A stretch of DNA of 62,147 nucleotides, the filler included, from Fonticula-like sp. SCN 57-25 (lineage: Eukaryota), in the NCBI GenBank assembly GCA_001724245.1. It is 6 parts of 6 records of this genome, joined end to end, with 100 filler letters (N's around TTAATTAATTAA, not from the genome) between each part and the next. Parts side by side here need not be neighbours in the genome. Positions count along the whole stretch, not along the records: positions 20,933 to 32,173 come from MEDX01000242.1; 5 more parts are not named here. The stretch is one strand, 5' to 3'. Positions 6,218 through 51,800 of this stretch are shown in pieces (the first letter of the stretch is position 1; each line of letters begins with the position of its first letter). The position numbers and the translations under genes are program-made. Below the pieces are notes generated by a model, which saw only the letters and a program-made list of their open reading frames with translations, was not told the DNA's origin and searched no databases.

Positions 6218-8381
6218 CTAGCCCGAATTAGCGTCTTCGTACTCGCCATGCCCATACGTAATGCCTGGGTCACTTGAAAATGGTGTCTGACGCGGGGGTG
6301 GTGCAGGAAGGTCCTGGATGAAATCTTCATCTTGCTCAACCAGCTCCTCATCGTCAAAGCCGAACGCGACTTGGGCGTGCTGCTCGATCTCCATCGTCTG
6401 CGGTTGCAGCGCGGCTTCAATGTCAGTCTCAGTGTCCTCGGGAATGTCATCGGAAGTTCGATCCAGCAAGGTAAATAGGGCACGCTGCCATGCTTTGACG
6501 ACCGAATCTCGCGGAATTTCTGACCATGCCTGTAAAGCCCAGCTAGAAACCTGTTGACGTGTCGGCGAGGGCAGCGACTTGTCGTCCTGCATGTTTTCCA
6601 CCAAATGCTTCATGAAGAGTCGTCGCATGTTGCTCTTGACGATCTTGTTTACTCCGACATCGAGCGGCTGGAGGACGGACGTCATGTTGGGCGGCAGCAT
6701 GACGAAGCGCACACCGATCTTGTACGCCAAGGCCTGCACTCGCTCCTCCACATGTGCGCTAAAGTTATCCATCACCAGGACAATGGGCGGTACGGGTTTG
6801 CTCGGCGCAGGAACATTGGTCGGCAGCGTGGGCGGCACGGCGGCGGGTGCTGGCTCGGTCGCGCTCGAGCTTGCTTCTGACGGCGGCGGCGGCGCAGACA
6901 GCAGCGGAGGTTGAAACGAAGGAAGCACGTTGGTCGGGCATGAGAGGGCGAGCGACGAGGGATTGCTTGAAGGAGCTGGTGTCGTGCTCGTCGGCAGCAT
7001 ATACGGCGCGCTCGGTGTTGCGAGTACGGCAGCCCAAGAACGCGCTTGCCTCAAGAGCTCTTCTTCTGACATGATCGCCCAGCTGAGCGGCAGCATTCTG
7101 TGCGAAAAAAGTGAGCACAAAAGATATCATTGCTAACGCTAGAGCGTACGAAGCAGACCAAGGCGCGAAAGGAGCCAAATGGCTTGCAGGTGCCAGTTGC
7201 CGTAGAGGCGTTGGTTCGATGCGGCGATGCACCGCGGGCGGAGCCTCGCTGGGCGCCTTTGCCTTTGGAGGACGGCCGCGCTTGCGAGGTTGGGGTGCAG
7301 GAGCGGCGCTTGGAGGCGGCAGAGCGATGCTTGGAGGCGGCACAGCGACGCTAGGAGGCGGCACAGCGACGCTAGGAGGCGGCGGAGCGACGCTCGAAGG
7401 CGGCAGAGCAGCGCCCAGAGAAGGCGGCGGCGCAGCGACACAAGCCAATTCATCGACGACCTCCGGGTTCCAGGTGCGATTTGTGGCGGCTAGTCTCGCC
7501 TTTACGTACGGCTCAACAATCGTTGTCAGGAACAGGATCATGCCTTCGCCGTCCATCCAAGCGTTCTCCTGATATGAGACCGTCAGGTCCTCGGGATAGC
7601 CATCGCCCGTATCTTCGTACTTGCGCGCGAGGGCACCATTACGCTTGGCCTGGAAGATCAGCAGCGGTGGCAGCTTGTCACCATCCGCCGATACGGTAAG
7701 AGCGGCCGTCAGCCGCTTCTTTGAGCCGACGGGGACGGCTACGCGGGCGTCCCGGCTTGTTTTCTGCTCGACGACGTAGCGATCCTCCATGACAAACCAT
7801 ACACCTGTTTCGTCCATGTTCAAGATGTCCTTTGGGTCGGTTGTCTCAAGAATTTGGCGCATGGTGTCGAGGTAGTGCGCCGTCTCGGCGCCCGTCGCGC
7901 GCGCACTCGCTCCCGCGGCTGTTGTAGAAGTGACGCGTCTCAATACCAGCTTATGTCTTTGCATAACCCTTGTCACAAAACTTTGTAACGCTGCAGGCGT
8001 AAGTTGCCCAATTGTGTCGTCGATCTGGATCGCCTTCACAGTGATGAGGCGGCGCGACACCGCGAGCTCCTTTCTACGGCGATCGAGCACATAGTCCAAC
8101 AGCGCCTTCTCCTGGTCTCGGGTCAAAAGCTTAGTGTCAGGGCCATTGTGTGCAGTACGCGCAGTCATATTAAAGTCGTGATCGCCCAGGATGCGCTCGG
8201 CATCGCGCAGCCACCCCGCGAAAGTTGTAACCTTGAGGGTCCTGTACCGCGGGATCCCAACGATCTGGGACGGATGCGAAAAGCCATGACGAAAAAAAGC
8301 AAGAAGAGCTCCTCGACGGTATTGGTAGGAGTGTACTACGTGCTGTCTGTGGCTACGCTGGACATTCGGTGCAGTTGGCAT
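6218..8381 (-). CDS. pogo-family transposase (CENP-B-type HTH + DDE_1, DD35D), 2 exons, ~703 aa
   Basis: Motifs ILNMDETG, QENAWMD, LVMDNFSAH and LPPNMTSVLQPLDVGVNK, with 35 residues between D2 and D3. The intron 7098-7149 (GTACGC...CTCAC...CAG) joins ORFs 6765-8402 and 6218-7120 in frame. Acidic C-terminal tail. Confidence 0.9.
7305..7432 (-). repeat. 21-nt coding minisatellite (VAVPPPS-like units) inside the transposase
   Basis: About 5 units of GGAGGCGGCACAGCGACGCTA-like sequence on the + strand. Confidence 0.8.
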
Positions 8382-8739
8382 CGCGATGGTCGGTGGCGGC
8401 ACGGTGGCGGCACGGTGGCGGCGAAGTGGCGGGAAATGACAAACTGTCAGCTTTTTGTGATTGCAAAGTTGCGTTTCGCTCGGGGGGATTTATTTTACCA
8501 CACCCCACAAAATACCACGAACGAAACACCACGAAATCTACGGTAGCACGTCACCCTCGGGGTGATTCACGAACACGCCACCCATGATTGGCTCATGACT
8601 CTGTACCCCAGGTCGCAACTTTTTTAATTACGTGAAGGCCAATCAGAGACGGCTGGAAAAATGCCTTTCCTTTCGTTGTGGTTTTGCGTCTCTCGTCGCT
8701 CTCTCTTTGTCGGGCATCTCTCATCCCTCTCATCCAACG

Positions 8740-10237: not shown

Positions 10238-12145
10238 CTTGCCGATCCAATCGGTATCTGACAGATTGCAAACTGCAAACTCCAAGATCGATCGTGCCGC
10301 ACCGCCCTGTCACATTCGTGTAAGGTGGTTGATGTTGCGTGGTTGCCCGACGGGACCCATCTTGTCGCCGTGACAAGTGGTGGCAGTGTCATCCAAGTCA
10401 CGAACAACAATGCGCACTCGACCGTGTACACGACAAACACACTTGTATGCATCGTGTTTGCCGCTCTTTCTTTTGCTTATTTCTTGTCTAGCTGTGTGGA
10501 TGCGCGTTCAGTCCCAGTGGAATTCTTGCCGTCGGTGGAGATGATCGAGAAGTGACACTATTGGATCCATCCGACAACTATGCTGTCATTCAATTATTTA
10601 CTGGATTGTCTGATAGAGTGCGTAGAGAATGATTGCCTGCTACTGCTCACACAAAAGCGTCAGGTGTGGCGTGCTGCCTTTTCCCCCGATGGGAATCTTC
10701 TTGCAGTGGGATGTGTTGATGGCCACGTGTACATTTATGGACAAACCAATGGCATATGGGCACAAGTATACAACAAGCATCATTCTGGTTGGGTATGCTA
10801 TTTTTCTTTGTATTATCGATGCTAATTGTTACTAGATCATGTCACTTTGCTTCAGTCCCTCTGGCCGCATGCTATTGGTCACAAGTAGTGACCATTCTGC
10901 TTCCATCTGGAATATTCCAACTGGTACCACGTGGCCATCCACTCCTCGCGTGACACTCAAGGGGCACATGGAAGGTGTCACTGGCGGCGCCTTTCTCGGT
11001 GACGAGTCGCACGTGATCACTGGGTCAGATGATAAATCCCTCCGCATTTGGCGCACCTCTGATGGAGTGCAAACTGCAAAATACCCATGTGCATTTGTGC
11101 GTCACGCTTTGTCTATTTATATCGCTCACCCATTTTGCTATTCAGGTGTATCCATTGTCGTATCACGCTGCGTCTGGCAACATTGCAATTGGTTCTGGTC
11201 AAGGGAATGTTCAATTGGCGCAAACTACCCCCTATATTGCACCCTCTGCCGCCCTTCATACTCCCCTTCCCACCCAACAATGTGTCCGCCAGCGGCTGGC
11301 ACAGGCACAAGCACATTTGAACGCGATCGACGCATCAATGAACAATGCAGATTTCAATTTACGTCAGCAAATGTCACGTGAACAGGAACTGAAGCGCTCG
11401 ATAGCTGAGCTCGAGGCCAAATGTGCGTACATACCTGAGTATGTATCATAGTTCCTAACGCATTCTATAATGTTCAGTGGCGAGTGAGAAAAATGAACTC
11501 AAGGAAATGCAAACTGCAGAGTATATTACGCAGTCACGTGATTTGACCAAGCTGAGGGAACGCCATGATGAACTGCTTGGCATCATTCATGTTTGCACGC
11601 AGACACTTGACAGCTTGACAGACTGCCTTGATGTTTCTGGATTGGAGGATGTCCGCGGGGACGCCTTCAAGGAATGGCTGTGCGATATTGGCATGGGCAA
11701 ACTGCAAACTAAATTGAATGACATTGATGGTGTTTCGTTGACAATGCTCCACGTGGACAATGTCATGGAAAATGACGTCACCTTCAATGATGCCGCCACC
11801 CTGCAACTGCGCGGCTACATTGCGCACAACAAGCTAAGTGATAACATCAAGTTTGCCCCGCCACGTGACAGTGTTCTATCATGGGGCGAATGGCAAACTG
11901 CAAACTGGATCAAGTCACTTGATGATCGATATGCATGCTTGGCCGATGCTGACTGGCATGGTGCTGCCCTATGTTCACTTTCGCCGCCACGTGTTGTCGA
12001 AGCATCCAAGGGAGCACTAAAGTCAACTGACGCAGTAAAGTTCATTGCTCTAGTTCGTCAAATGCGAAATGAAACAGACGGTGATAAGGCCACGTGGGTG
12101 TCAAAGTGGAGTGGATCGATCCCGATCGAGAACCAACCTTCCTAA
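10238..12145 (+). CDS. WD40-repeat protein with coiled coil and tandem SAM-like domains (5' end uncertain or truncated)
   Basis: WD40 motifs VVDVAWLPDG, VWRAAFSPDGNLLAVG, SSDHSASIWN and LKGHMEGV...ITGSDDKSLRIW. A heptad region follows, then SAM-like segments FKEWLCDIGMGKL...IDGVSLTML and VLSWGEWQTANWIKSL...WHGAALCSL. Confidence 0.7.
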
Positions 12146-12638: not shown

Positions 12639-15600
12639 CTACTTTTTCGCGGCGGGCCTCTTTGCCGCGATGGCCTCTGCCTTTCTGGCGGCGAGGATTG
12701 CGTCGGTGTAGTCCTTGATGAGGTGCGCAATGACGCTCGCCTCGCTTGTATTGAAGACGTACTTTGTTCCCCTCGTGAGCGACTCTGTCATGATCATAAT
12801 GTTCTTCTGCGACGGGCTGTAGTTGACAATGCTCTTGTACGGGAACGAAAGCAGCGGCGTCTTGGAGCGGCGATTGAGGACGTACACGCCCGTGTGGTTG
12901 ATGGCGAGCCACAGGTTGTTGGGCATCTGCGACGTGTACGACTGCAGCACATTGAACACGGTGCTGCCGTAAAACTCCCACGTGAACAGCTGCTCCATAA
13001 ACAGGCGGTTGCACTCGTCCTTGCTCTTGCCGCTGAGCTTTTGGTGCTGCGCGGCGAGCTGCTGCTGCACGCCCTGCTTGACAAGGTGCTTGGGAAGGAA
13101 CTTTTTGGCAGTGTCCGCGTACAGGCTCTCCTCGGGGTTGTACGTCGCGTGGTTGCCGCTCTCAAACTGAGTGCGCAGCGCGGCGAGGTACACGGCCTCG
13201 TCGTCGTCAACGGGGTACCGGTCGTTGGAAATGTCGCTCATCGCCTGGAAGATGACAAGCTCGCGCTCAATGTCGTTCGAGAACGTGTTGAGCGGCGGCA
13301 TAAAGATGCGGCGCTTGAAGAAGAGGCGCAGCGACTTGTCGCTGTTGGTCTGCTTGGCGTACTTGTCCCACTTGTAGATCGTGTCGGCAATCTTTTCCTT
13401 GCCAGTCATCGCGCGCTCAAGCGAGCCAAAGCTCTCAAAGAGGGCAAAGCCAGTGCAGCTCTTGATGCCAACCTTGTCCTTGACGAGCTCGACAATCTCG
13501 GCCGTCGTGCACGCGGGGTCAAACGTGAGCGCGCGGCTCTGGCCGTCCATAAAGTGGAAGCGCGCAAACATGTCCTTGAGGTTGGTCACGGCGATAATCT
13601 CGTCGACCGACGGAGGCTGCTTGCGAAGGCCAGTCGCGAACGTGCGCGTGATGGCGCGGTAGCAGTACTTGGCGTGCTCGCGCTCGCGCTTGTGACGAAG
13701 GCTGTTCATGTTGCCGTACGAGTGCGCGGCGAGGTGCGCGCGCAGATAGTTGAGCACGAGCAGCGACGGCGCAAAGCACCAGCAGCAGATCGCGAGGACC
13801 TTCCAGAAGCGCAGAGCAGCCTTGCTGTCGGGCTCGGGGTGGTTCGTCGTGAGGCGGATGAGCTGAAGAATCAGCTCGTCGCGCGCGCGCGGCACCTCGA
13901 TGCAGCCGCGCATCATGTCCTGCAGCATGCCAGCGTAGGGCGCGCGCTGGCTCTCCTCGTCGCCGCCGGCAGGGTTGGGCTGCATGCCAGCGTACACGAG
14001 CAGCGCATTGTTCATGCGCAGCGCGTTCTCGTTCAGGTCCGCGTCGAGCGAAAGGTCAAAGTTGCACAGCGAGAACGAAAGGCGCGACTTGTTAAAGCTC
14101 CAGTCGGCCTGCGTGTAGTCGGCAGCGCTGCCGCCGGTCGCGGGCAGCTTTTGCGTCGACGACTTGCGGCCGAGCGTGAGCTTCTTGAGCGTGCCAAACT
14201 TGCTCGTGCCGGTGCTGCCGCCCATCATCGTGTCGGGGCCGGGCAGGCGCATGATGCCAGCGTCGAGCAGCTTCTCGCGCGTCTGCGTGAGCTCGTGGCC
14301 GAGAACAGAGTCGTCGACCTCCATCTCGGAAAGGCGGCGGGCGTTCTCCTTCTCCTCGCGCGTGATACCGGCGCGGTGAGCGGGCGAGTAGTCCTTGATC
14401 ATGGCAACAACCTCCTCGCACTGCATGCACTCAAACTCGACGCGCGTCACCTCGTTCTCGGGCTCGCTCGTCTCGGGCTTGAGGTTGAAGATGATCGTGT
14501 TCGTGTCGAGCTCCCAGCTCTCGAGGCGGTCATACGTGTAGCTGCGCATGTCGGCCTTGGTGCGGCCGTGCACCCACGCGAAACCGTCAACGTGGATCGA
14601 GATGGCGAGGTTGGTCGAGTACGCCCAAAAGCCCTTGTAGGTGGCGGGGAAGAGCGCGCAGCCGTACGTCGGGAACTGCTTCACGGCCTCGAGGAAGAGC
14701 ACCTTGGCCTGCAGGGTCGACTTGCCGGCAAGCTTGGCGTGCACGGCGCTGATCAGACGCAGCCACTCGGCCTTGTCGTGGGCCGACTGGTAGCGCTCGG
14801 GAATGTAGTTGTTGAGCGCGTCAATGCGGCCGAGCTGCTGCTCGTCATAGTCTCCCCACTCAACCTGCGCCTTGAGCGCGGCGAGGCGGATCACGGCGGC
14901 CTCGGTCAGCGGGAAGTCGCCGCGGAGCGCGCTGTGCACAGCCTGCGCGTAGATAAGGTGGTACTCGACGGGGTCGGTCGGGATCTTTTGCGGCGTGCGG
15001 AAGAGGCGGCGCTTGACGTAAAACTTGGCGTCGCCGCCACCGATGGCCTGAACGGCCGGGGCGCCCTTCTTCATCGTCTGGTACTTGGTCTGGTCAGACG
15101 ACGAGCGGCGCTCGAGCTCCCAGCGGGCAAGAATGTCGGCCATGTTGTCGTTGGCCTTGACGACGACCTCAGAGTCGGGCGTCACCTCATAGACGCTCCA
15201 GCCGTTCGTGTCGGGCAGGCCGATACGCTTGGCGAGCTCCTTGAGCGCGTCCGAGGCAGTGGTCGACGACTTGATGCCGATGGCCTTGACGTTGCCGTCG
15301 AGGAAGTAGAAGCGGCAGACGATCGGGCGGCCAGTCTTGATGGCGTCAATCTCGATGGCAGACGGCGGCAGCTTGCGCGCGCCGTTGAGCACCGTGTTCT
15401 TGAAAGCCTCCTCGCACTGGATGGCGAGCTTGACAATCTCCTGGCGAAGCTCAATGCGCTTCTTGAGCCAGTCGGCGTCGCCCTCCTCGAGCGGCGGCTT
15501 GGCGCCCTCGGCGGCCTCGTCCACAACCGTGTTCTTCTTGATAAAGTTGCGGAGGGGCTTGGCGAGCGCCTTGCTCGGCGGGAAGGACGAGAGGCAGACG

Positions 15601-18600
15601 AGCATCATCTGCCAAGTCTTGATGCTGATGACGGACCAGTGCTTCAGCTCCTTGGGGTTCTCAGTGCACTGGCGCACGAGCTGGACAAAGATCTCATCGC
15701 GGAGCTCAACCACTCCGATACCGAGCTTGACCACGTTCTGGATCATGGGCGGGAGGTGCTCCTCGCGCTTGGGCTGCGGGTCAGTGATCTTGAGCAGCTC
15801 GCGGAAGATCTCGACGGCCACGGTGACCATCTTTTCGCGGCGCGCAATGTCGTCGCCGGTAAACTTGATCATCGACGACGGGATCGGGTTCTTGGTGAAC
15901 ATGAGCATCTCCTGCTGCGAAACCTTGCTCTTCTTCTTGCGGAGCGTGTTGCTGATCGTGCCGACCATCTTCTCGTGCTCGTCATAGAAGCGCTCGGCAA
16001 AGGTCTCCATGGTCTCACCCTCGTCGGACGGGGCGCTGCCCTTCTTCTCGGCCTCCTTCTCGGCCTGGCGCTGGAGGAGCGGCTTGGCGGCCTTGCGCGG
16101 CGGGGGCTTGTACACCGGCGGCGGGGCCGGGGCATCCGGGATGAGGCCCGAGCCGGCGAGCGACGGGTTCGCCTTGCGCTTGGAGCGGCTGATGGTCTTC
16201 TTGTAGTCCTCAGCCTCGACCTGGTACATCGAGTCGAGCTCGCTCGTAATGTCAGTGATCATCGAGTTGAGCTGCTGGTTGCGCTTGGTGACGTCGGCCG
16301 ACGTAACAAGGTCCTTGTCAATCACGTCGAGGAACGAGAACATGTCGCCAATATCGTCGGGCTTGAGGGCCTCGTTGGTCATGTTGACCTTGGCCTTGGT
16401 GGCCTCGCGAGTGAGCTCGAGAATCTCCTGCTCCTCCTTGTGGCGCTTCTCGCGCTCCTTGGCGGCCTCAGCCTGGCGGCGGGCCTCGGCCTCCTCGGCC
16501 TCCTTCGAGCGCTTAATCTCCTCCTCCTGGCGCTTGCGCTCGGCCTCAATGGCCTCCTGGCGGGCGCGCTCCTCGGCCTCGGCCTTTTCGCGGCGGAGCT
16601 CGTTGACATAGTCGCGAGCGAACCAACCGCGCACGATCGACTGCAGCTTGATCGCCGAGCGCTTCTTGCGGCGGTAAATCTCGCGCTTGGCAAACATGCG
16701 CAGGCACTGCTTGACGAGCGTGACGGCCTTGCGCTGGCGCACAAAGTGGACGCGGTAGTAGTGGCCCTTGATGACCTTGGTCACCATGATGGCCGACGAC
16801 GTGATGAACTTTTCCTTGGCGTCCATGATCGGCAGGTAGATCGAGTTGCGGAGGAAGACCTTGGTCTTACCGAGCTGCCACGAGTCGGCGGGCGCCTTGT
16901 ACTTGTTGAGCACGGAAACGACAAGGTCGTTGGGGGCGGCGCCCTTGGCGGGGCGCTCCTTGGGCGGCACGAGGCACAGGAACTTGGCAAGGAACTGCTC
17001 GGCGGTGACGCGCACGGCGTAGCCGGCCTTGCGGATACGAATGGTCTCGAGCATACCAGAGTAGCGCAGCTGCGAGACGACGAGCTCGTCCTCAAACTCG
17101 AACGCGCTCTTGTTGCTGTTGGGCTTGACGCAGCGCACATAGTGCGGCGAGGTGCTGCCGAGCACCGTCACGAGGGCGGTGAGCTGGTTGCGGAAGAAGG
17201 TGCTGACGGTGGCCTTCTTCTTCATCGTGACCTTGCCCGACGAGTTGTCGGCCTCCTTGGGGGCCTCGCCCATGACGCGGGCCAGATCGTTCTTGGACTT
17301 CAAGAGCAGCTCAAAGATGAGCTCGGACGCCTCGTCCTTGTTCTTGTCCAAGAAGCCGCCAACCTCGTAGGTGACCTCGCCGGCGTAGTGGATGACGCCA
17401 AACTGGAGGACGGCCTGGCGCGGCTTCACGTACAGCTTGTTCTTGGCCGTCTTCTCGTGGAGCTTGTCGAGCAGCGTCTGGTCAGTGGACTTGGGGAACT
17501 TGGACTCCTCGTCGAGGAGCGAGAGGATACCAGTCTTGCCCTCAATCATCTCAATGCACTCTGAGTTGTCGGTAAAGTCGACCTTGTCCCACTTGATGCC
17601 CTCGCGGTCGTACTCGGCCTGCTCGAGCTTGAAAATGTAGTTGGTAAAGAACTGCTGCAGCTTCTCGTTGGCAAAGTTGATGCAGAACTGCTCAAACGAG
17701 TTGACCTTGAAGAGCTCGAAACCGAAAATATCGAGCACGCCGATGAACGAGCTCGAGTCGCCCTTGGGCATGGTCGAGTTGTTGATGTACAGCACGATCC
17801 AGTCAAAGAGGCGGCTGTAGAGGGCCTTGGCGATCGAGTCGCGGTTGTCCTTGCTCTGGTCCACGTTGAGGGGAATCTTGGACTGCTCGCCGCGCACGAC
17901 GATCGAGCGGTAGCACAGCGCCTCGGACAGACCAGCGGCGTCGACCTCGAGGAGCGAGGCGGCAGCATCGATCGAGTCCGTGTTGACGACGGACGACTTG
18001 TCGCCGGTCTCGTCGGCCTGGAACTTGGCGTTACCGAGGTGCAGGATGGCCGAGAGGATGCGGAAGATGCCGTCAACCTCCTCGGGCGTGCAGTTCATCA
18101 CGGTGAACGCAAGCTTGAGCTGCTCAAAGAGCTTGGCGTCGTCCGTGCCGGGAATCGAAACGCACTTGCTCTGCGACAGGTAGTGGAACTGGTCCGCCTT
18201 CAGCAGCTTGTACTTGGTGCGCTCCTCGGCGGTGGCGCCGGCGCACAGCTGGTAGAAGCAGTGGTAGTTGCGCTCGTCCATCGCCTGCGACACAACGCGA
18301 GACTTTTCCAGCAGGTAGTTGACGAGCGACGCGCCAACAATGTGGTTCGTCTTGTCAAAGTGCACCTGCAGGAACTTTCCGAAACGCGAAGAGTTGTTGT
18401 TACGGACAGTCTTGGCGTTACCAAACGACTCGAGGATCGTGTTGGCCTCCATAATCTGCTGCTCGACCCAGTCCTGGTTGGACGTGATCGCAGTCAGGTA
18501 CTGCAGAATAAGCTTGGTGGACTCGGTCTTACCAGCGCCAGACTCACCAGAGATAATAACAGACTGGTTCTCACCCAGCGTGCGCATGTTGTAGTACGCG

Positions 18601-18993
18601 GCCTCCGCAATGGCGAAAATGTGCGGGGGGAGCTCGCCGATGCGAGCCTGGCTGTACTGCTTCACGTACGTCTACAAACAGCGCATCAGCATCCAAAAGC
18701 ACAAAGAAGTGATAAACGGCGTACATCCTCATAAAGCGAGATCCACTTGTAAGGGTTGGCAGCAACGAGAATCGTGCCAGTGTACGTCTAATATTACGCG
18801 TCAGCAAAATATCGGCACGAAATCAAATCATACGTAGATGATCTGCTTCTGGTAACGCTCGCGCAGGTTCTCCAAAATGCTTTGCTCCGACAGCTCGGGC
18901 AGGTTGACCATGTCATCCATTCCCGCGGCTACACGAGGTGATCAGTACGAGCATAGCAACCACGACAATCAATCAATGCGCACTCTTCGCCAT
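12639..18993 (-). CDS. Unconventional myosin with motor, IQ motifs, SAH/coiled coil and two MyTH4-FERM modules (class 22/7-like, no SH3 seen)
   Basis: Motor motifs GESGAGKT, NNNSSRFGK and DIFGFE; IQ motifs (LQSIVRGWFAR); E/R/K-rich helix; two MyTH4 (RDEIFVQL, RDELILQL) plus FERM domains. ATG at 18993, short 5' exons, then one ~6-kb exon. Confidence 0.95.
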
Positions 18994-26774: not shown

Positions 26775-29357
26775 ATGGTGGCGAAGAGTACGTCCTTTTG
26801 CGCAGCTGGTGCGCGTGTACTTATGCAACGTAGAGCACAAGAGTAAGCGCGTGTCTGCCAACCACCGCTACAAGGTGGACCGCCGTGTCAAGGAGCACCA
26901 CAGGAAGCTTCGCAAGGCGGCTAAGCAGCATCCGGTTTCCAACAAGAGTGCGTTTCGTTTGAAGTTTTGTGCAGCGAAGTTGGAGGGGGTTTCGTGTGTC
27001 TTTTGTGTTGTTTTTGTGGAGTATTTGTTGTATCGTTGTAATTTTATTTCTAATCTTTTGGTTTCAGGCAAGAAGGATCCTGGGATCCCCAACTCGTTCC
27101 CTTTCAAGGATGAGGTGCTGCAGGAAGCCGTCGCCGCCAAGGCGCGCATGGAGCAGGAGCGCGAGAGGCAGAAGGAGGCGCGCCGCCTTCACATGCAGGA
27201 GCGCCGCAACATGATCACGTCCAACATGACCATGGTTGAGTTGGCTCGTTTTGCCGAGAGCAAGCAGAAGGAATTTGACCGCAAGGTCATTGTGAACGCT
27301 ACGGAAATGTTGAACGAGAAGGGTATCAAGGTCAAGGGTGCGGAAACAGCAGCCTTTTTAAAATGTAAACTGACCTTTTCTTTGCAGACAATTCGAAGCG
27401 CGCCTACTTCCGCGAGTTCCGCAAGGTTGTTGACGCTGCCGATGTGATCCTCGAGGTCCTCGATGCCCGTGACCCCATAGGCTGCCGTGCCCCAGAAATT
27501 GAAGAGATGGTCCTGTCAGCTGGCATTGACAAGAAGATTATTCTCGTTCTCAACAAAATTGGTATGAAGCCCTCCAACTGAATTCGCTGCGTTGTGATCT
27601 GACCCCGAGTCCTTTAGATCTTGTTCCTCGTGAGACTGTCGAGCGCTGGCTCAAGTACTTCCGCAATGAATTCCCGACGATTGCCTTCAAGGCGTCCACC
27701 CAAACGCAGCGCCGCAACCTCGGACAGAGCAGCCGCCCTGCCCTTGCGAGCTCGACGGACTTGCAGCATACGAGTGAGTGCCTCGGTGCCGAGACGCTGA
27801 TCAAGTTGCTCAAGAACTACTCGCGCAGCGGCGAGCTCAAGACGACCATCCGCGTCGGTGTCATTGGCTACCCCAACGTCGGCAAGTCTTCTCTGATCAA
27901 TTCGCTCAAGCGCTCCCACGTGGTGGGCGTGGGCGCGACGCCCGGCTTCACCAAGGTGGCGCAGGAGATCAAGCTCGACGAGCACATCAAGCTTCTCGAC
28001 TGCCCTGGTATCATTTTTGCCACGGGTGACGAGGCGGACATTTTGCTCCGCAACTGCGTCAAGGTTGAGCAGGTTGAGGACCCGGTCGGCGCTGTGGGCC
28101 ACCTTTTGAGGCGTATCGGCGAGAAGCAGATGATGGCGCACTATGCGCTTCCGGCCTTTTCGTCGCCGCAGGAGATGCTGATGCACCTTGCACAGCAAAA
28201 GGGGAAATTGAAAAAGGTACTGCCAAAGATACTCTGCTTGTTGTCTCGATGCTCACCTCTTCATCTTCTTTTTTTTCAGGGTGGCATGCCTAATATTGAA
28301 ATGGCTGGTCGTCTCGTTTTGCAAGACTTTAATTCTGGTCGCATTTCGTACTACACCGAGCCGCCGAAGGACAACCGTCTCATCAAGAAATCAGTCGTTA
28401 CGCAGTTCGGAAAGGAGTTTACGTGCGTACTCTCCCCCCTTTTTTCGTGTTGCCTTTTGTATACAAAGCACGGATTAGAGCTTGCGCACATCGTGTGTGA
28501 CGGGCGTCGGAACCATGCGAGATTTCTATCAATTGTTTATTTGTCGCTTTTCGTTCATATTTTTCCTATTCGTTGATTTCTCTTTTGCTTACCCTTTCGA
28601 TTAGGCTCGCCGACCTCGAAGCGGAGGAGAATGCGACCGTGCTCAGCGCCGTTGCGCCCGCCAGCGAGATGTCTGATATGATGGAGATGGCGCCCGGATC
28701 GTCGCTCAAGATCCGTACTGGTGATGAAGAGGAGGAGGAAGAGGAGGAGGAGGATGACGAAATGTGCGTTTTGGTCTTTGTAATTATGTTTCTTTTGTTG
28801 CTATGCACAAAGCACGGATTAGAGCTTGCGCACAACGTGTGTGACGGGCGTCGGAACCATGCGAGATTTCTATTTCTATTTCTTTATTTTCTACTTTCCC
28901 GCTGCTGGCCTTCGCACTCTCTTGACTCGCGTACTTACACGCTGCGCAGTGACTCTGACGGTCCCGACATGGACGTCGATGAGGATGATGAAGACGAGGA
29001 CGAGGACGAGGACGAGATGGACGATGAGGAGGACGAGGACGAGGACGAGGACGAGCCCATGGTGCGTTTTTAAACATTGTATTGTTCCATAGCTAATGCA
29101 AACTTTAGGAGGTTCAGCCGGCCAGCAAGGCGAAGGCGAAGCGCGTGACGACCGCCATGGAGGATGCCGTCAACCCGCAGGTGAACCGCTCGCGCCGCCA
29201 GCAGCTCAAGAAGCAGAAGCGCGACGCGCGGAGAGTGGGCGGCAGCGACGACGGCAGCGACAATGCCGACGGCGATGATAACGACGACTACAGCTTCTCG
29301 ACGGACTTTGTCCCCATGGCCGACGACGACGATGAGGACGACGACGACATGGAGTAA
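26775..29357 (+). CDS. NUG1: Nucleolar circularly permuted GTPase NUG1/GNL3 (nucleostemin family)
   Basis: N-terminus KHKSKR...[13 protein letters not shown]; GTPase motifs [35 protein letters not shown] and LLDCPG; acidic C-terminus. Confidence 0.95.
28463..28529 (+). ncRNA. Intronic single-hairpin H/ACA-like (AGA-box) pseudouridylation guide RNA, copy 1
   Basis: Lies in intron 28423-28604. Lower stem GCACGG/CCATGC, pocket ATTAGA / GTCGGAA, upper stem GCTTG-CGCACA/TGTGTG-CGGGC. AGA at 28520-28522, 14 nt below the upper stem. The pocket pairs with LSU rRNA UCYGAC-U-G-UCUAAU. Confidence 0.75.
28807..28873 (+). ncRNA. Intronic single-hairpin AGA-box guide RNA, copy 2
   Basis: Lies in intron 28764-28949. 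66/67 nt identical to copy 1, and the only difference is in the apical loop (TCG vs ACG). Flanking intron sequence is unrelated. Confidence 0.75.
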
Positions 29358-29967
29358 GGGAAGGCGGTTGCTTTTTTTAGTGTGTCATGATGTGTACAGA
29401 CAGCTGAGTATCGTATATGATTTTGCTTTTGAATACAAAGATTGCGCTGGGACAGTGGTTATCATTTCCATAGAGCCGAGTATTCTTTCGAATTGCCGCA
29501 GAGTTGAAACCAGATAATAGAATGGTTGCATAGAGGAATGGGTTTGACAGTTTGGTATTATTCATGATTATGCATTAATTTTTTGCAATGCTCAGGGGGT
29601 GTGTACTACTAACGGCCATCGGCCATACGTCCATGTTGCAAAAAAGGGGTAAATAGTTACCGGTAGTACAGGAAAACAAAAAATAGTTAGAACCCGAAAC
29701 ACGGGTGGCCGTCTCATGCCTAACAAACTTGTTCCGTTAGCAGCTCTTTGGAAATCCTGTGGAAATCTCCGATTGGTCAATTGCGTCAGGGTGTATGCAA
29801 ACTGGCCGTCTCCCTGCTCGCCCCACCCGGAGCAGCACAACTGCCCCTGCGCGCCCACGGCCAAGTGCCTGCCCTTTGGCGTCAAAACACACTTTGGCTC
29901 GTTGGTTGGTATGCCCGCTTGCTGCTGAGTGAGTTTTTTTGATATCGTTGAGCGAGCGTCTTCCTGC

Positions 29968-31002
29968 AATGCCTTGGGCGCAAGGTTGCGTCTCACTTCG
30001 AGACATGCTGGAAGCTGTTCGCCGGCGATTCGACCTGGGCATGCTGGTCATGTACATACTTCACTTTTTCTTTGGGTTTGGGTTTCTTTTGGGATTCCAC
30101 TGGCTGCTGCTTGCAGTCATCATTCAGTCTGACTACCGCGACTTTTGCAAGATTGTGGAGCGGCTTGGTGATCGGGAGCTGCACCTCGAGTTTTCTGACG
30201 TCAGCCAAGACGAGTTCCCAATCGAAGAGCAGCGCCAGGTCATCCGTGATCTGAAGCACTACAGAGTCATCGCGCTGATCAACTGCTTTTCGTATCATTT
30301 GATGAATATTGTGTACTGGTCCATGCATTTGGCGCTTTCGCTGCGCCTCTATGCCTGCCCGACACAGTTTGGAATCGCGCCAACGTGTGTCGAGAACGCA
30401 TCTGGCGGGGTACGCTTGGGAATAAACTTGACGAGGGGAAAGGGAGATGCAGAGGAAGCACAGGAAGACTGTAGCCGCTTTTGTTTTCATTGCACGTGTC
30501 CTCTTTTTTTCGCATCATTTTCTCGCGTGTGCTGACATGCAACGTGGCACAGATCCGGTTCCTTTATGTCATGTACCGCATGCTCCAGGTTGCCATCATT
30601 CTGCGCTGGATACTTGACCTAGCGATTGTATGGCGCTGGGAATGTTGGCTGCGCGACACGCGCGAGCGCTTCGCGCCGCTCAACGAAGTCGCGCAGGCGC
30701 TCGCGGTCATCGAAGAAGAGGCAGATCGGCCGCTCGAGACGATGAACCACAATCACGTGGCCCTGTCGCAGTGGAAAGGGCAGTCGAATGGCTCAGAAGG
30801 CAGCGACGTAGAAGGCGACGCGGGAGAGGAAGACTATGACGAGGCGGGGGACGAGGGACGAGGATGTGATGCTATTACAGAGAACTTTTTAAACAGGCGC
30901 ACATGCGCTCTCTCTTTTTGCTCTATCGAGTCGCTTTTATGGGAAGAGGATGTGCAAGACCGACTGTTTTTGTTCATTCGCTGTATGTATTTGACTGTAT
31001 AA
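29968..31002 (+). CDS. Hypothetical membrane protein with acidic C-terminal region
   Basis: Coding-like exons with hydrophobic segments (VIALINCFSYHLMNIVYW; FLYVMYRMLQVAIILRWILDLAIVW) joined by GT-AG introns; no family recognised. Confidence 0.5.
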
Positions 31003-31224: not shown

Positions 31225-31718
31225 CTATGTACACCATGCGATTTCCCCTCCAAATAATATGTTCATGCCGTGTTTCCAGCGGCCGCCTGCTCCTTATGCG
31301 GCGCCGCAAGCGCGAGTTTCCGCACGACGGGCACTTGACAATGTTCACGGCCAAATCGAGCTGAAAGACGCTCCGCTGTCAATACACGCTGCAAAAAAAC
31401 CACAAGAAATGTACCTGCTTATGCGTCGAACGCTGAGCTTTCCTTGAGTGCGATGTCTTCTTCTTAGGAACCGCCATCTTCAACACCGACTCCCACAACG
31501 ACGGCACTGAACTCGAAAAGTGAGAGGGGCAGCGCGTGGCCAGATCGCCTGCGCGTACCGTTCGACTCGGGCTCCGCCGCTTCGTCGTGAAAACCAGCCA
31601 AGGCAAGACGCGGGGCAGCTCCACCTTGACGGAAGAGCTGAAGCCACCGAGCCAAGGGCGCGAGGCTATCCCGCGCGGCGGCCCACAGCTGCAGCCGCAT
31701 CCCGACACCGCTCACCAT
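31225..31718 (-). CDS. MRPL32: Mitochondrial ribosomal protein L32 (bL32m)
   Basis: Presequence followed by MAVPKKKTSHSRK and CPSCG across two introns; C-terminus atypical and uncertain. Confidence 0.8.
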
Positions 31719-45226: not shown

Positions 45227-48200
45227 TCAGTGCGCCTCGTAGACCTGCGCCTCCTGCGCCTCAACCGCGTACGTCTTTTCGTACGCCGCGGCCTCATCGA
45301 GGGGAATATCGTACGACTCCATCGGTGAGAGGTGCTGGCCCATTGTGCGCCTGGCCTCGGCGCGCTTCTGCCACCACAGGTAGCCGACGATGCCAAAGAG
45401 GAGCGCAAAGAGGGTGACAAAGACGACGGCGGCTGTCCCGCCCTGCGTGAGCACATGGTTATCGACGCGGTAGACACAGTTGGGGCCAGTGATCACCATT
45501 GTCTGGTCGTAGCAGTCGACGCACGAGTCCGCCTCAAAGCAGAGCGAGCAGCCGGTGCCGCACGCGTGGCACGAGTCGCCGTCCTCATAGTACGCGTCCG
45601 AGCAGTACTCGACGCACGAGCCCACCTCAAAGAGCAGCGTGCCGCGGCACGTCAGGCAGTTGAGCGCATTGTCCTCACACGTGGCGCATGTGTCGTCGCA
45701 GTCCCGGCAAAAGCCGTTGCTGTTGTACGTGCCGTCGGGGCATGTCGTAAAGCACGCGTGCTCGAGGTACGAGGCGTTGGGGGGACACGTCGTGCAGCCC
45801 TGCGGGCCCTCGTGGTTGCAGGTCGCGCATGAGGCGTCGCACACAAGGCAGTTGGAGCCCGACACGTACGTCGACCGCGGGCACGCGTACACGCACTGCG
45901 TGCCCCACAGGAACATGGCAGCTGGGCACGACAGGCAGCTGTCGGCGCCTGCACCGTTGCACGTGCCGCACGACGGGTTGCACAGCAGGCAAGAGGTATC
46001 ATTGGCAAAGGAGCCGGCGGGGCACGCCGCAAGGCAGCTGCCGTCAAACAGAAGCAAAGGCGCCGCGCACGACGTGCAGTCATCCTCCTCGTCACCGTCG
46101 CACGTTGCGCACGACGACGAGCAAACGGCGCACGTCCCATCGCCCGCATTGTACGTGCCGGCCGGGCACGCAGCGTAGCAAGTCGAGTTGAACAGGAGCA
46201 GCGACGGGGCGCACGTCAGGCACTGGTCCGCAGCGCCACCCGCGCAGGTGCCGCACGTCGACGCGCACGAACTGCACGCATCCGCCGAGCTCTGGTACGA
46301 GCCGGGCGGGCACGCGTCAAAGCAGGTGCCCTGGTAGAGCTTGTCTGATGCGTTGCACGAGAGGCAGCCGGCCGGGCCGGCGGCGCCGCACGACGCGCAG
46401 GATGAGTGGCAGTCGAGGCACACGCGCTCGGGGTCAGAAAACATGTGCTCCGGACACGTGTCGACGCACATGGAGAGGTGCAGCGACGAGGAAGGCGGGC
46501 ACGACGTGCACGTAAACTCGTCCGAGCAGGTCGCGCAGGTCGCGTCGCACGTCGTGCAGCGACGGCCGTCGGCAAACATTCCCGACGGGCAGGCCGACAT
46601 GCACGTACTGTTGAACAGGAGCGGCGACGAGGGCTGGCACGTTGTGCAGGTGGTCGCGCTGCCAATGCAAGACGAGCACGGCGACGTGCACGGCACGCAC
46701 GAGCCGGTCGGCGCCAGGAACGACGTCTGGGGGCACGAGAGGCAGCTCTGCTCCTCGCCCGACGAGCACGAGGCGCAGCTCGAATGGCACGACGCGCAGC
46801 GGCCGTCGATGGCAAAGGTGCCGGCGGGGCACGAGGCGACGCAGGCTCCATTCAAGAGCAGCGAGCCGGGCAAGCACGCCACGCACGAGGCAGACGCCGC
46901 CGAAGAGCACGACGCGCAGTTGGCGTCGGCGCACGCAGAGCAGGAGCCGTCGCCGACCTCAAAGTGCCCAACAGCGCACGAAGTGCAGTCGGTGGCGGCG
47001 CCGCCAGTGCACGACGCGCACGAATCCTGGCACGCCGTGCACTGCGAGCCGTCGGCAAACGTCCCCGAAGGACACGAGCGGCGGTACCACGTCATCGACC
47101 CGAGGCCGCCGGGCGCGCCAACCGCCAGGAAAGCGTTGCTCACAGCGACGCCGCTGCCCATGTGCGACGCAGCGCTGCCCGCCTGCTCAAAGACCTGCGC
47201 GTAACCGGACGTCGTCGTCGTGAACGCGTAGGCAGCGCCGTTGTTGCTCGCGCTGTTGGGCGCACCGGCCACAATAAGGTAGTCGGAGCTCATGCGCACG
47301 GGCGTGCCAAAGTGATCGCCCGCAACGAGGCCCGGGACGGTAATCTTAAAGGCAATCGCGCACGTCGGCGTGCAGTCAAAGACGTACACCGCGTCCGTGG
47401 TCGCGCTCGAGGTCGCCTGCGAGCCGACCGCCACGCGGTTCCCAACGACAGCGATGTTATCGTCAGCGCCAAAGCGGGCCGTCGCAGTCGTGTCGGGTGT
47501 GGCAAAGGTCATGGATGAAACGAGCTGGCAGCCGCCGGTCTCGCTCCACGAGTAGAGGTAAGCCAGACCCTGCTGAAGCGAGCCGATAGCAGCGTGACGG
47601 CTTGATGCATCCAGCGAAAGAGACAAACCAAAGACAGAGTTGGGCGTCGGGTTGGCAATTTGGCAAATTGTCTCGCAACCAAGCGAAGCCTGCTGCAGCG
47701 GGCAGCGAGCTAGGACGACCACGCCGCGCTTGCCGCTGCCGCCCGCCACGTTCGGAAGGCTGTACGATACATAGCTACCCGAAACCGCGACCGTACGGCC
47801 AAGATGAATATCACCCGCAGGGTTCACCGCAGTTCCGCTAAAGAGTTCGCGCTGCGTACACGCGACGGTGGCGTTGCCTAGGCACTCGTACAGGATGGCC
47901 GCGCCGACGGCGGGGGCGGGGGCGCTGCCGCGAGGCGCGCCGACCAGGAGCAATGAACCATCAAACGAAACGGATGTTCCGAAATTCACCGAGTTAACAG
48001 GCGCAGTAATCGTCGTAGCAAGCGAGCACGTTGACAAACCGCATGAATACACAAAGACGGCGCCGGCACCGCTCGCATAACCCGGCGCGCCCACCGCCAC
48101 CAGCGATCCCGACATCGCCACACTCGTTCCCAACTCGGAGCCACTCGCACCGCTCAGCGTCGCCGTGCCATACGTCGCAAGAGAGCCTGTATAGGCCCCA

Positions 48201-48256
48201 GACACTGAAGCCGCCGCGACAAGCGCGAGAAGCGCAGCGATCACCGCCATGCGCAT
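45227..48256 (-). CDS. Single-pass surface receptor: signal peptide, FG-GAP beta-propeller, furin-like Cys-rich repeats, TM, short Tyr-rich tail
   Basis: Repeats of the type LGTSVAMSG...VGAP...GAVFVY; about a dozen CxxCxxxCxxC...CxxC units; TM AAVVFVTLFALLFGIVGYLWW; tail with YDIP, YEKTY and VYEAH; intronless. Confidence 0.88.
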   Translation of the reverse strand: MRMAVIAALLALVAAASVSGAYTGSLATYGTATLSGASGSELGTSVAMSGSLVAVGAPGYASGAGAVFVYSCGLSTCSLATTITAPVNSVNFGTSVSFDGSLLLVGAPRGSAPAPAVGAAILYECLGNATVACTQRELFSGTAVNPAGDIHLGRTVAVSGSYVSYSLPNVAGGSGKRGVVVLARCPLQQASLGCETICQIANPTPNSVFGLSLSLDASSRHAAIGSLQQGLAYLYSWSETGGCQLVSSMTFATPDTTATARFGADDNIAVVGNRVAVGSQATSSATTDAVYVFDCTPTCAIAFKITVPGLVAGDHFGTPVRMSSDYLIVAGAPNSASNNGAAYAFTTTTSGYAQVFEQAGSAASHMGSGVAVSNAFLAVGAPGGLGSMTWYRRSCPSGTFADGSQCTACQDSCASCTGGAATDCTSCAVGHFEVGDGSCSACADANCASCSSAASASCVACLPGSLLLNGACVASCPAGTFAIDGRCASCHSSCASCSSGEEQSCLSCPQTSFLAPTGSCVPCTSPCSSCIGSATTCTTCQPSSPLLFNSTCMSACPSGMFADGRRCTTCDATCATCSDEFTCTSCPPSSSLHLSMCVDTCPEHMFSDPERVCLDCHSSCASCGAAGPAGCLSCNASDKLYQGTCFDACPPGSYQSSADACSSCASTCGTCAGGAADQCLTCAPSLLLFNSTCYAACPAGTYNAGDGTCAVCSSSCATCDGDEEDDCTSCAAPLLLFDGSCLAACPAGSFANDTSCLLCNPSCGTCNGAGADSCLSCPAAMFLWGTQCVYACPRSTYVSGSNCLVCDASCATCNHEGPQGCTTCPPNASYLEHACFTTCPDGTYNSNGFCRDCDDTCATCEDNALNCLTCRGTLLFEVGSCVEYCSDAYYEDGDSCHACGTGCSLCFEADSCVDCYDQTMVITGPNCVYRVDNHVLTQGGTAAVVFVTLFALLFGIVGYLWWQKRAEARRTMGQHLSPMESYDIPLDEAAAYEKTYAVEAQEAQVYEAH

Positions 48257-48843
48257 GGCAACGAGGACCACCGTGCACGGAGAGGAGCCCTGGCCACAAC
48301 CTGTTTCGCGCACCAATCAACGACGAATGCCAACTTTTGGCAGCCAATCAACAACAAGCGCTGACAGAAGAGATTGGATTACGTGACGGCCATATGCCCT
48401 TTATGTTCGAACCCGGTCGCACAAAGTCTTTGAATTTTGAATACCGACGAAGAGCATAGAAATCCATTTCCAAATAATGGGAAAGGTAAAAATATTTGCA
48501 GTGTTTCTGGGGTTGCCATGCCTGTTGCCAACCCTCTGGAATCGCAAATGCATTCACTATTTTACATTAGAGCTTGGTCCAAGACGTGGCTCACGTTGAT
48601 ATTATAACAAGGCCGCCGAAAATGTTTCAAACGTGCATGGACATCCAAGAGCTCTATGCCCATAGGTCGCTTGATCAAACCCATGTCGTGAATCACGATA
48701 TCACGATAGCAAACAATCGATGGATAATATATTGTGCACAAGAGTGCAATGAAAACTACAACCCCAAAAAGAAAAATGAGGCATGGCACTCGTACAATCC
48801 CCAAAAAGAGGAACGAAGAAAACCAGCTACCTAAAATATCACG

Positions 48844-51800
48844 CTACTGAGTCAACTCCATGAGGCGCGCGTTCGCGATAGCGGCATTCGGACGGCGCGC
48901 GATGTCAAGCGCGACGCATTCCTCAACGATGGAGGCGACGGCAATCGACAAGGTGTCGTTGTCATCAATGATAACCTGAAGAGCCTTGCCAGACTCGACC
49001 GCAGACACGACGGCGCTGTCGGGCATCGATCCCCACGGCGGGTTGCCGGAAAGAATCTCGAGCATCACAACACCAAGAGAGTACATGTCGGACGCCTGAT
49101 CGGCGTCAATGGTCGGCGCGTCATCGTTGCCCTGAGACAGACGCGCAACCACCTCGGGTGCAGCATAGCGAACGTTCAGGTTGGACTCGGTCACATAGAG
49201 CGAATACCTAAAGTTACGCGGTCAGTACCAAAGCGCAATAGTGAAGGGGCGTACTCGCTGCGCGCCAGAGAAAAGTGGCCGAGTTGGACAATCGGCGGCG
49301 AAGCGTCAGACGTCGGGGTAACATAGATGCTTGCCGACTGAATGTTGCGGTGCGCAACTCCAAGCGTGTGCGTGGCGTTGACCGCCTGCGCAATGTCGCT
49401 GCAGATCCGAAGAATGCCGGCAATCGGCATCGGGCGCGGGGCCTCGGCAAGGAAGCGCGGCAGATCCCACGGGCACTCGCGCACAATGATCGTGCGAGGC
49501 TCGTCCGTGTACCCAACCAGGCCAACGATGTTGGGGTGGAACGACAGCGACCACAGGATGGACACCTCAAAGTGGAACAGCTCGTCGTTCTCCGCGGCCG
49601 TACGCTCGGGGCGGTCGTTGTAGTCAATGACAACTGCCGACCGGCTGCCGGCGCGCTGCTCGAGACGGTCGTCCAAAATCGATGCGTGGTACATGGTCGC
49701 GGTCGATGACGCCTATCAAAACGTCAGAACACAATGAGCAACAACTAAATGGCGTACATCAACGCGCTCGCCAGGCTGAATCGTCGTCGAGTAGTCCACC
49801 AGGAGGAAACCAGGAAGCGCAATCTCGGCGACCGTGTTCACCACAGTCTTGTCCGCAAACGAAAGATGGGTCGTGCTCTCGGCGTGGCGCATGCTGCCGC
49901 GCGAGCGCGCGAGCGTCTCGCGATACGTGCTCAGCGCCATCTAAAATATCCAGTCAGCAAACAGCCGTCAAGAACAAGCAATGCAACGCACCAGGCCGCC
50001 GGCACCGCCAAACTCTTCCAGACGCTTGTTGGTGGCCTTCTGACGGCGACGGATAACCACAACAACGATGACAATGATAACCAAGAGAACCACCACGGCA
50101 GATGCGCTCGCAGCCGCAATGATGGTGCCGTTCGTGCCGAGGCTGGGGTCCGACACGACGTTGTCGGTCGTCGACAGCGTAGTCAAGATAAGACGAGTGC
50201 CGACCTGCTCTTCGCCGTCCTCGTTGCCGGCCAAAATGAGCACCTCGTACGCGCGGCCCGACTCGAGTTCACCAATCACCGCAGCCGTGTTCTCAGCTGT
50301 TGAAAAGACATCGTCAGCAAAGCACAAACAAACACGGACAGTCGTACTCGAGTTGATGCGCGAGTGCAGAGTAAAGTCGTCGGAAACGGCGCGGGACGGA
50401 ACGACCTCGCGATAGTACACCATGTAGTAAGTCGCATGCGGCGAAGCAGTCCAGCTGAGCGACAACGAGTCCGTCGTCGGCTCATCAAGACGAAGGCCAG
50501 TTGCAGCTGCGAAAAAGCGTCAGATAGAGCTGGCCAACAGCAATGCACGTACGCGTAATGTACGTGTCCACAGTGATCACGGCGCCTCCCTCGGTGTTGT
50601 ACCCATTCTCATCGCCCGACGTGACGCGGAACCGGTAGCTCGTCTTCGGGAACAGGTTCTTCACCTCGATCGTCCGCTCAGTAAAGTCGATAGCCGCTGT
50701 ACATAAACGTTAGCACAGTGTGATACAGCTACTCAGGCGCACTGTTGAGATTGGCAACAACAAATGAGCTTGTTCCCAGCGCCACCTCGGCCATAAAGGT
50801 GACGTTGCCCGTCGAGTTCAGCACGTTCCACGCAAGCACAACCGACGTCGACGTCTTGCTCGTCCACGTCAGGTTGGCAATGTTGTCGTTGCTCTCCACC
50901 GGGATCAGCTCGCACACGTTCGTAAAGCCCTCCTCCCACGTGCCATCTTCTTTGCACTGGCGCGACGGCGGACCGGCGTCAGACTCGCGGTAGCCGTGCG
51001 GGCAGCGGCCAATACTGACCTCGCCGGGCCCCGCAGCAGGGAAGAACGTGTTGCCAACGCTCTCCGTCGGGCAGTCATCGTACTTGATCTGGCACGGGTT
51101 CACGATGGTCGAATTCCACGCTCCAGATAGCAAGCACTGCCGAGTGGGAAGGCCCGTCGTGCCCTCGCGGCACGCGCCCGTGGCAACATTGCCAGCGAGC
51201 GTCTCCGACCACACGGCATCACTCGCAGTGTTCTCCGCGCAATACAGAGCTAAGAATACCTGTGAGCAGCAAAGAAATGCGCAATGCGGCCGTACCTGCG
51301 CACGCGTTGGAGATGGCGCCCCACTGGCCGTTGGCATCGCACTCGCGCGATGGCGAGCCCGAAAAGCCGGCGTTGCAGGTTCCCGACACAGTCGGCGTGA
51401 GCGACGTCGAGAGCGGCCACTGCGCGTTGCCGTCCTCAATGGCGGGGCACGAAAGACCTGCGCAGATCGTGAGCAACAACATAACAGACGCAGTTGAGGC
51501 ATACGAATGCAGCCGTTGGCAACGGCGCCCCACTGGCCTTCAAGCGAGCATTCACGCGACGGACCACCAGCGTATCCAGTGTGGCACACGCCAGCCGCCG
51601 CGCTACCAGCCGACGTCTCGGGCCATTCAGCGTTCTCAAACGTAGCAGACGAGCACCGCAGCGCTAATACCAATCGCGTCAGCACATTCTGCGACATACT
51701 ATTCAATACGTACCAGTGCACGAGCCAACGACTCCCGACCAGCTGCCGTCCATACGGCAGTCGCGCACAAGCGAGCCAGATGTACCGACCGGGCACGTGC

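Follow-up and report, generated by a model that had tools for sequence, protein, structure and literature searches.

The stretch of DNA analysed here, from Fonticula-like sp. SCN 57-25 (62,147 bases in 6 joined parts, hereafter the window), contains the 3' part of a gene for a NUG1/GNL3-like nucleolar GTPase, two consecutive introns of which each hold one copy of a 67-nt element that we consider a fairly probable candidate for an intron-encoded, single-hairpin guide RNA of the H/ACA type. The gene lies on the plus strand at positions 27620..29360, with its earlier exons further upstream, and we read the region 27400-30200 directly. The exons of this part occupy positions 27620-28216, 28280-28422, 28605-28763, 28950-29061 and 29109-29357 (29360 with the stop codon), all on the plus strand. 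The 199-residue exon 27620-28216 encodes an MMR_HSR1 GTPase domain (E 3e-16), and its best named relatives are GNL3/NUG1. When spliced, the exons give a continuous reading frame that encodes 419 residues and closes with a stop codon; residues 1-416 of the product align with fungal GNL3 proteins, over the C-terminal two thirds of the latter and as far as their ends (e.g. P0003: 201-627/628).

The NUG1 introns delimited here measure, in order, 56, 63, 182, 186 and 47 nt, which bears out a first-pass annotation of this DNA that had singled out two consecutive introns as long against the short remaining ones. The first of the two long introns (28423..28604, plus strand, 182 nt, GTGCGT..TAG) has stop codons in all three frames. 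The second (28764..28949, plus strand, 186 nt, GTGCGT..CAG) has a length divisible by 3 and no stop in the incoming frame, and its retention would add 62 mostly hydrophobic residues to the protein; that it is an intron is indicated by the alignment with homologs, by its richness in U and by the splice signals at its ends. The hexamer GTGCGT opens three consecutive NUG1 introns (at 28423, 28764 and 29062), and GTGCGTTTT opens two of those, while the two upstream introns begin with GTATGA and GTACTG. The last three exons contain acidic low-complexity runs and are mutually similar (z 4.4); it is only via such runs that the exons following each of the two long introns are alike. The shared intron starts and the similar acidic exons may be the trace of an old tandem duplication of an intron plus an exon.

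A repeat search of the region yielded one two-copy family of direct repeats, 67 nt long, with copy 1 at 28463..28529 and copy 2 at 28807..28873, both on the plus strand and spaced by 344 nt. The alignment of the copies matches in 66 of the 67 columns (99%), and the sole mismatch, U versus A in column 29, falls in the apical loop, which reads UCG in copy 1 and ACG in copy 2. The flanks are similar only to the level expected from composition (z 0.16 on the 5' side and -0.44 on the 3' side, global alignment against 500 shuffles). Since the near-complete identity sits within dissimilar flanks, the conserved unit is the hairpin with its short tails. The element starts 40 nt (copy 1) and 43 nt (copy 2) past the 5' splice site, and the position three nucleotides after the AGA box described below lies 79 and 80 nt, respectively, ahead of the 3' splice site. 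Within the window, the 23-nt core of the element occurs twice when up to 3 mismatches are allowed (and not once in 100 shuffles), and a covariance model built from both copies is significant only at these two loci, with 102.7 bits each. A third match of this model, at 11307-11358 (11.6 bits, E 2.4), lies inside a coding exon for a coiled coil and was dismissed.

The element is composed of a leader ACAAA (positions 1-5), a lower stem GCACGG/CCAUGC (6-11 with 51-56; 5 of 6 positions paired, with one C-A mismatch), a 5' pocket strand AUUAGA (12-17), an upper stem (18-28 with 32-43; 11 pairs, three of them G-U, and a bulged A38), the apical loop (29-31), a 3' pocket strand GUCGGAA (44-50), a spacer G (57), an AGA box (58-60; 28520-28522 in copy 1 and 28864-28866 in copy 2) and a tail UUUCUAU (61-67). 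The first base of the box, A58, follows the last base of the upper stem by 14 nt, with the 1-nt spacer, i.e. within the 13-16 nt rule. The minimum free energy fold (-20.0 kcal/mol) contains weak pairs that shut part of the pocket. The open structure of the H/ACA type, with the pocket between the lower and the upper stem, has -18.0 kcal/mol, 2 above the minimum, and the upper hairpin alone scores -11.4 kcal/mol. The description in the first-pass annotation, i.e. 67-nt copies that differ by one loop base, unrelated flanks, and a box 14 nt below the top of the pocket, is thus accurate; its hairpin layout holds for the stems, the pocket and the AGA, with the correction that the lower stem is not fully paired.

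Predicted target in helix 65

From the pocket strands, the target is expected to read UCCGAC-U-N-UCUAAU. We looked for it in the ribosomal DNA (rDNA) of other eukaryotes; a 20-nt motif, run against genome assemblies of prokaryotes, returned at least 27 loci. All eight loci submitted to Rfam proved to be eukaryotic rDNA contaminants (LSU_rRNA_eukarya, 334 to 2115 bits). As an observation in its own right, contigs with eukaryotic rDNA occur in at least 27 assemblies that were deposited as genomes or metagenome-assembled genomes of bacteria or archaea (L142-L168); the eight contigs tested contain large-subunit (LSU), small-subunit (SSU) and 5.8S sequences according to Rfam, i.e. they represent contamination in public prokaryote assemblies.

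Among the matches listed, all 27 loci contain GAA-UC[C/U]GAC-U-G-UCUAAU-UAAAAC, the motif being identical because the loci were selected that way, and the variable position is C in 16 and U in 11 of them. With the C-type of this sequence, which belongs to helix 65 of the LSU ribosomal RNA (rRNA), the pocket forms 6+6 pairs, all 12 of them Watson-Crick, on both sides of an unpaired UG; with the U-type it forms 11 such pairs and one G-U. A50, the last A of GUCGGAA, is opposed by an A of the rRNA and does not belong to the guide duplex, which comprises 6+6 bp. The complementarity proposed in the first-pass annotation therefore stands for six pairs on either side of the UG and fails at this last A. 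Helix 65 is the sole site with 12 pairs in every one of the 7 long rDNA loci that were scanned. Among 300 shuffled pockets, no pocket attained 12 Watson-Crick pairs anywhere in a composite rRNA; the top one formed 12 pairs, 9 of them Watson-Crick.

Counted from the presumed 5' end of 25S in the yeast-like locus L162, the unpaired U is number 2133 of 25S, and positions 2129 and 2142 are occupied by U and A, respectively. Yeast 25S helix 65 carries pseudouridines at 2129 and 2133 (the latter guided by snR3) and m1A2142, according to published modification lists (PMC3664796, PMC5824354, PMC5699541), one of which assigns 2133 to the second hairpin of snR3. Since the count in L162 and the published lists agree, the numbering of the site as yeast 2133 of snR3 in the first-pass annotation is correct. 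Human 28S-3616, which that annotation names for the same site, is listed for SNORA6/ACA6 in one review and may correspond to yeast 2133. Two scans of viral contigs for the target motif (98 and 64 stretches) returned no rRNA, and a paper search with the target as an RNA string gave no match.

Could a duplicated hairpin with these properties have some other role, e.g. as a cis-acting structure in the splicing or feedback control of NUG1, or as a precursor of a small RNA, with the rRNA match arising by coincidence or serving as a sensor? Such a role would suit the matching placement of the copies relative to both splice sites and their presence in one gene, the product of which acts on pre-60S particles; moreover, trypanosomes have AGA-like RNAs of the same shape that are independent of Cbf5. 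It would leave unexplained why an element for splicing should match a known pseudouridine site in 12/12 pairs, on both sides of an unpaired U, and have its box correctly spaced, when none of the 300 shuffled pockets attained such a match. We regard a role of this kind as distinctly unlikely.

Comparison with known H/ACA RNAs

[quoted passage not shown] The intron segments upstream of the element, 40 and 43 nt long and U-rich, are too short for a guide hairpin. Downstream of copy 1, a flank of 75 nt contains no ACA, no AGA and no stable hairpin, and it must also accommodate the branch site and the pyrimidine tract. The only ACA downstream of copy 2 lies 11 nt ahead of the 3' splice site, probably in the branch region. 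No stable second hairpin was detected in 141-nt windows around the copies (z +0.1 and +1.0). The hairpin is followed by AGAUUU, which starts like the usual fungal H box and lacks its sixth A, so the ANANNA consensus is absent, as is a 3' ACA from the copy 1 flank. An ACA is common to the two copies; it belongs to the ACAAAG with which the block opens on its 5' side, a place in which it cannot serve as a 3' box. The earlier statement that the copies have in common no second hairpin, H box or ACA is thus right for the first two and wrong for the third.

No Rfam family, snR3 and SNORA6 included, matches the element (positions 27000-30500, E up to 10). The whole window contains no snoRNA family and only a tRNA-Ser, whether the gathering thresholds are applied or matches with E up to 1 are admitted. 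Since a hairpin-hinge-hairpin-tail common to both copies, an H box and a 3' ACA were all looked for and are all missing, we place the element outside the canonical two-hairpin class.

The element could still be one arm of a conventional two-hairpin snoRNA, in which AGAUUU is a degenerate H box and a fast-evolving 3' hairpin has escaped recognition. A fungal snoRNA survey lends this some plausibility, since it describes AGA as the commonest start of fungal H boxes and their sixth A as variable, and traces seven of 50 H/ACA families, all canonical, to early-branching fungi (PMC5824354); two hairpins are also the rule in most studied eukaryotes (PMC7991803). Such an arm would have to fit either into the merely 40 and 43 nt upstream or, in copy 1, into the 75 nt downstream, which fold weakly, lack ACA and AGA and are needed for the branch site and the pyrimidine tract. 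Because the flanks of the two copies are unrelated, any second arm would be unconserved while the first is identical at 66 of 67 positions. We consider a hidden second arm very unlikely.

A single-hairpin guide has its closest structural counterpart in the H/ACA-like RNAs of trypanosomatids. According to the paper that describes their consensus (PMC2613932), the 100 RNAs described are single stem-loops of 57-91 nt with AGA 3 nt before the 3' end; an A stands one nucleotide ahead of stem I, which has 5-8 perfect pairs, the upstream pocket strand has 5-11 nt, a perfect stem of 3-7 pairs lies immediately above the pocket, 1-3 free nucleotides precede AGA, the pseudouridine is 13-16 nt from the box, and each side of the target forms 3-9 pairs. 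Measured against this consensus, and like its trypanosomatid and Euglena counterparts, the element is one hairpin, of 58 nt from G6 to U63, i.e. within 57-91 nt. It shares with the trypanosomatid type the AGA box, the A (A5) ahead of stem I, the 1-nt spacer (G57), the distance of 14 nt from the top of the pocket to the box, the 6+6 bp duplex and a 5-bp stem above the pocket. In the features readable from sequence it otherwise conforms to that consensus and may depart from it in two, namely in stem I, which has 6 positions and one mismatch, and in its apical loop, which has 3 nt, or 5 if the closing A-U pair opens, where Psiscan requires at least 5 nt. The genomic setting differs as well. [quoted passage not shown] Since the host is fungus-like and not euglenozoan, the likeness to trypanosome RNAs is either convergent or an ancestral retention, and in our verdict the element cannot be counted as their kin by descent.

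Among two-hairpin H/ACA RNAs, yeast snR3 has the same predicted target in its 3' hairpin, namely the helix-65 U that counts as 25S 2133; snR3 and SNORA6 have two hairpins and the element one. The second target of snR3, in helix 69, does not fit the pocket, as judged by eye. The pocket scan of the rDNA loci likewise gave no helix 69 site. Like the candidate, archaeal H/ACA sRNAs have a single hairpin with a single box, and one set of proteins for each RNA (PMC7991803); unlike in the archaeal sRNAs, no K-turn or K-loop is seen by eye in the upper stem, the box is AGA, and the element lies in an intron of a eukaryotic gene. Another partial parallel is offered by the "conserved intergenic structures" 1, 3 and 4 of Pezizomycotina and Saccharomycotina (Gao, Jones and Rivas 2021, PMC8216456), which are regarded by the authors as possible guides and are not called snoRNAs. 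By their description, they resemble the element in being single hairpins with an H-type box and a loop that might act as a guide, without an ACA hairpin, and differ in being intergenic, confined to Ascomycota and found through covariation. AUA, AAA or AGA may stand in for ACA (PMC7991803), and single-hairpin forms have been reported in Entamoeba (PMC3542256). We found no report of an intron-encoded single-hairpin guide with an AGA box in a fungus or any other opisthokont in the open-access text searched.

Specificity, copy number and the organism

To search the window de novo for guides of this kind, we required a hairpin, a pocket, a lower stem, ACA or AGA at 14-16 nt and a bipartite match to any of 692 U sites that show conservation in 3 or more of the 27 rDNA loci. 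An initial version of the scan, which demanded 6 uninterrupted pairs in the upper stem, returned 8 weak matches versus 3 in reversed controls and missed the element, because only 5 of its upper-stem pairs precede the bulge. Among these, a match at 31454-31519 on the minus strand, with the neighbouring U of helix 65 as its target, was discarded because it overlaps coding sequence and a start codon. The second version, applied to both strands of the window, returned exactly two matches, which are the two copies, with a score of 12.0; the reversed controls gave one match with 9.5, and 12 dinucleotide shuffles gave 0-4 matches each, with a top score of 11.5. A crude search of the window for other long U-rich introns retrieved only stretches that resemble untranslated regions or are intergenic.

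The reads of 4 DNA runs were compared with positions 27400-29400. In one run, probably the source of the window, the contigs break within the copies (one ends at 28521, one spans 28500-28865 and one starts at 28844), as is expected of a two-copy repeat in a de Bruijn assembly. Depth, which does not equal copy number, is 20-40 in the bins over the element versus about 15 nearby in this run, and 233-660 in low-complexity or conserved parts of the gene. There is no sign of a high-copy repeat in depth, and with two copies in the window the dispersed repeat that the first-pass annotation had named as a danger to its interpretation is not seen. The strains of the other runs are nearly identical; they differ in introns outside the element (27565, 27576, 27578, 27603 and 28597), and the remaining differences (27834-27865 and 29332-29372) lie at depth pile-ups of 233-660 or are one-contig indels near the 3' end. 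Given that the strains are so close and their differences fall outside the element, they provide no covariation information. A metagenome scan with a NUG1 exon, of which 80 loci were kept, retrieved one 1065-nt piece with 100% identity, from the same organism.

These data also bear on the idea of a non-functional or decaying repeat, e.g. a recent insertion, a gene-conversion tract, half of a former snoRNA or a small mobile element, the copies of which are identical through youth. Very recent copying would indeed produce 66/67 identity, and neither the near-identical strains nor the metagenome loci speak for long-term conservation. A decaying repeat would nonetheless have to account for block boundaries that coincide with one complete guide unit, for a lone difference in the apical loop, the least constrained position, and for the restriction to two copies in the window without a depth pile-up over the element; direct reading of the sequence around the blocks found no terminal repeats or target-site duplications. 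On balance, we judge such an origin unlikely.

The organism itself appears to be a deep-branching, fungus-like opisthokont, nearest to zoosporic or early-diverging fungi and without a sequenced close relative. This placement, which supports the apparent opisthokont of the first-pass annotation, is reasonable because the identities of both NUG1 and a myosin are highest to fungi. Proteins of Mortierellomycotina, chytrids and Mucoromycota share 60-65% identity with NUG1, those of animals, plants and amoebozoans 57-61%. The myosin, encoded at 12639-18665 on the minus strand by a single exon (2008 residues, uninterrupted), has two MyTH4-FERM units and RA domains, and shows 50-53% identity to chytrid, neocallimastigomycete and aphelid proteins; the value is 48% for Capsaspora and 45-47% for dictyostelids and animals. 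Many of its chytrid relatives are mislabelled "cytochrome c oxidase subunit 1" in the source records.

Other features of the window are less directly connected with NUG1. Open frames in two regions on the minus strand (45227-48316 and 50729-51796) encode FG-GAP and furin-like or growth-factor-receptor cysteine-rich repeats and two hormone-receptor (HRM) domains; animal-like surface-protein domains of this kind are unusual for fungi. An open frame of 545 residues (6765-8402, minus strand) contains a Tc5-transposase DNA-binding domain (E 8e-6) and, judging by this domain, may be the remnant of a pogo or Tc5-like transposon. The tRNA-Ser (CGA) mentioned above lies at 53058-53142 on the plus strand, was detected by both ARAGORN and Rfam (61.3 bits), and is the sole RNA family match in the window. 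At ~53790-53850 on the minus strand, directly downstream of an open frame, there is a short tandem run of TTTTTTGCAG-like units, which look like repeated 3' splice-site or pyrimidine-tract motifs.

A candidate guide for 60S biogenesis

The reading that we favour, and hold to be fairly probable, is that the two copies are functional intron-encoded single-hairpin guides of the H/ACA type with an AGA box, directed to the helix-65 pseudouridine equivalent to yeast 2133. It is the combination of features that supports it: a perfect match, a known site, the spacing of the box, a duplicated block between unrelated flanks, and a host gene of ribosome biogenesis.

Several observations weigh against this reading. 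The apical loop has 3 nt, or 5 if the closing A-U pair opens, and the lower stem contains the C-A mismatch. The fold energy is ordinary for the composition (z -1.2 and -1.6 versus shuffles), so the fold alone is no evidence. Hairpins followed by a box that pass the structural filters are about as frequent in the real sequence (224) as in shuffled ones (179-234), and shuffles that score up to 11.5 make plain that chance does yield near-perfect matches in a search of this size. In the second scan the stem rule was relaxed, and an energy filter added, after the first version had missed the element; since its criteria were tuned afterwards, the scan backs a guide function and is not a strict test of it. 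The target sequence comes from the rDNA of other eukaryotes, and the case for guide function as a whole is read from DNA. The near-identical strains offer no comparative support for the element, and the other NUG1 loci of the metagenome scan, at most 58% identical, are without it (covariance model, 443,337 bases). Finally, a recent structural study argues for cooperation between the two protomers and reports that eukaryotic H/ACA particles are less active when truncated to a single hairpin.

If the copies are indeed guides, the element probably works like the minimal guides of Euglenozoa and Archaea, to judge from the likenesses described above. Each long NUG1 intron would encode a single-hairpin guide of ~58-63 nt, transcribed within the NUG1 pre-mRNA, and the Cbf5/Nop10/Nhp2 set would assemble on the hairpin and its AGA box. 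Splicing and debranching would be followed by exonucleolytic trimming of the intron down to the protected particle. In the nucleolus, AUUAGA would pair with UCUAAU, and GUCGGA with UCCGAC, of helix 65 in the pre-LSU rRNA, leaving the U-G unpaired at the base of the upper stem, where Cbf5 would isomerise the U equivalent to yeast 25S pseudouridine 2133. Two copies would give two guides per host transcript, and their residence in a gene for 60S biogenesis would couple guide supply to ribosome production.

A broader proposal, that this lineage uses single-hairpin AGA-box H/ACA particles throughout, one per intron, with the helix-65 guide as the first of a genome-wide set, seems to us rather doubtful. 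The overall interpretation in the first-pass annotation, which leaned in this direction, holds with respect to H/ACA geometry, target and single hairpin, and gains nothing from the rest of the 62-kb window, where the second scan revealed no further candidate guide beyond the two copies. Its idea that such guides spread from one intron to another is likewise speculative, these two copies being the only ones seen. Within this broader proposal, which is based on a single locus and is to be taken as equally tentative, the minimal design may have been reached independently of Euglenozoa and Archaea, or it may be ancestral.

A confirmed guide of this kind would mean that the bipartite design can be abandoned in Opisthokonta, and that the architecture of two hairpins and two protomers is not obligatory there; it would also be the first intron-encoded example of the minimal design within the open-access literature searched. 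If functional, the element would provide a natural system for probing the role of the second protomer, and homology-based surveys, which recover few families in early-branching fungi, may overlook guides of this form.

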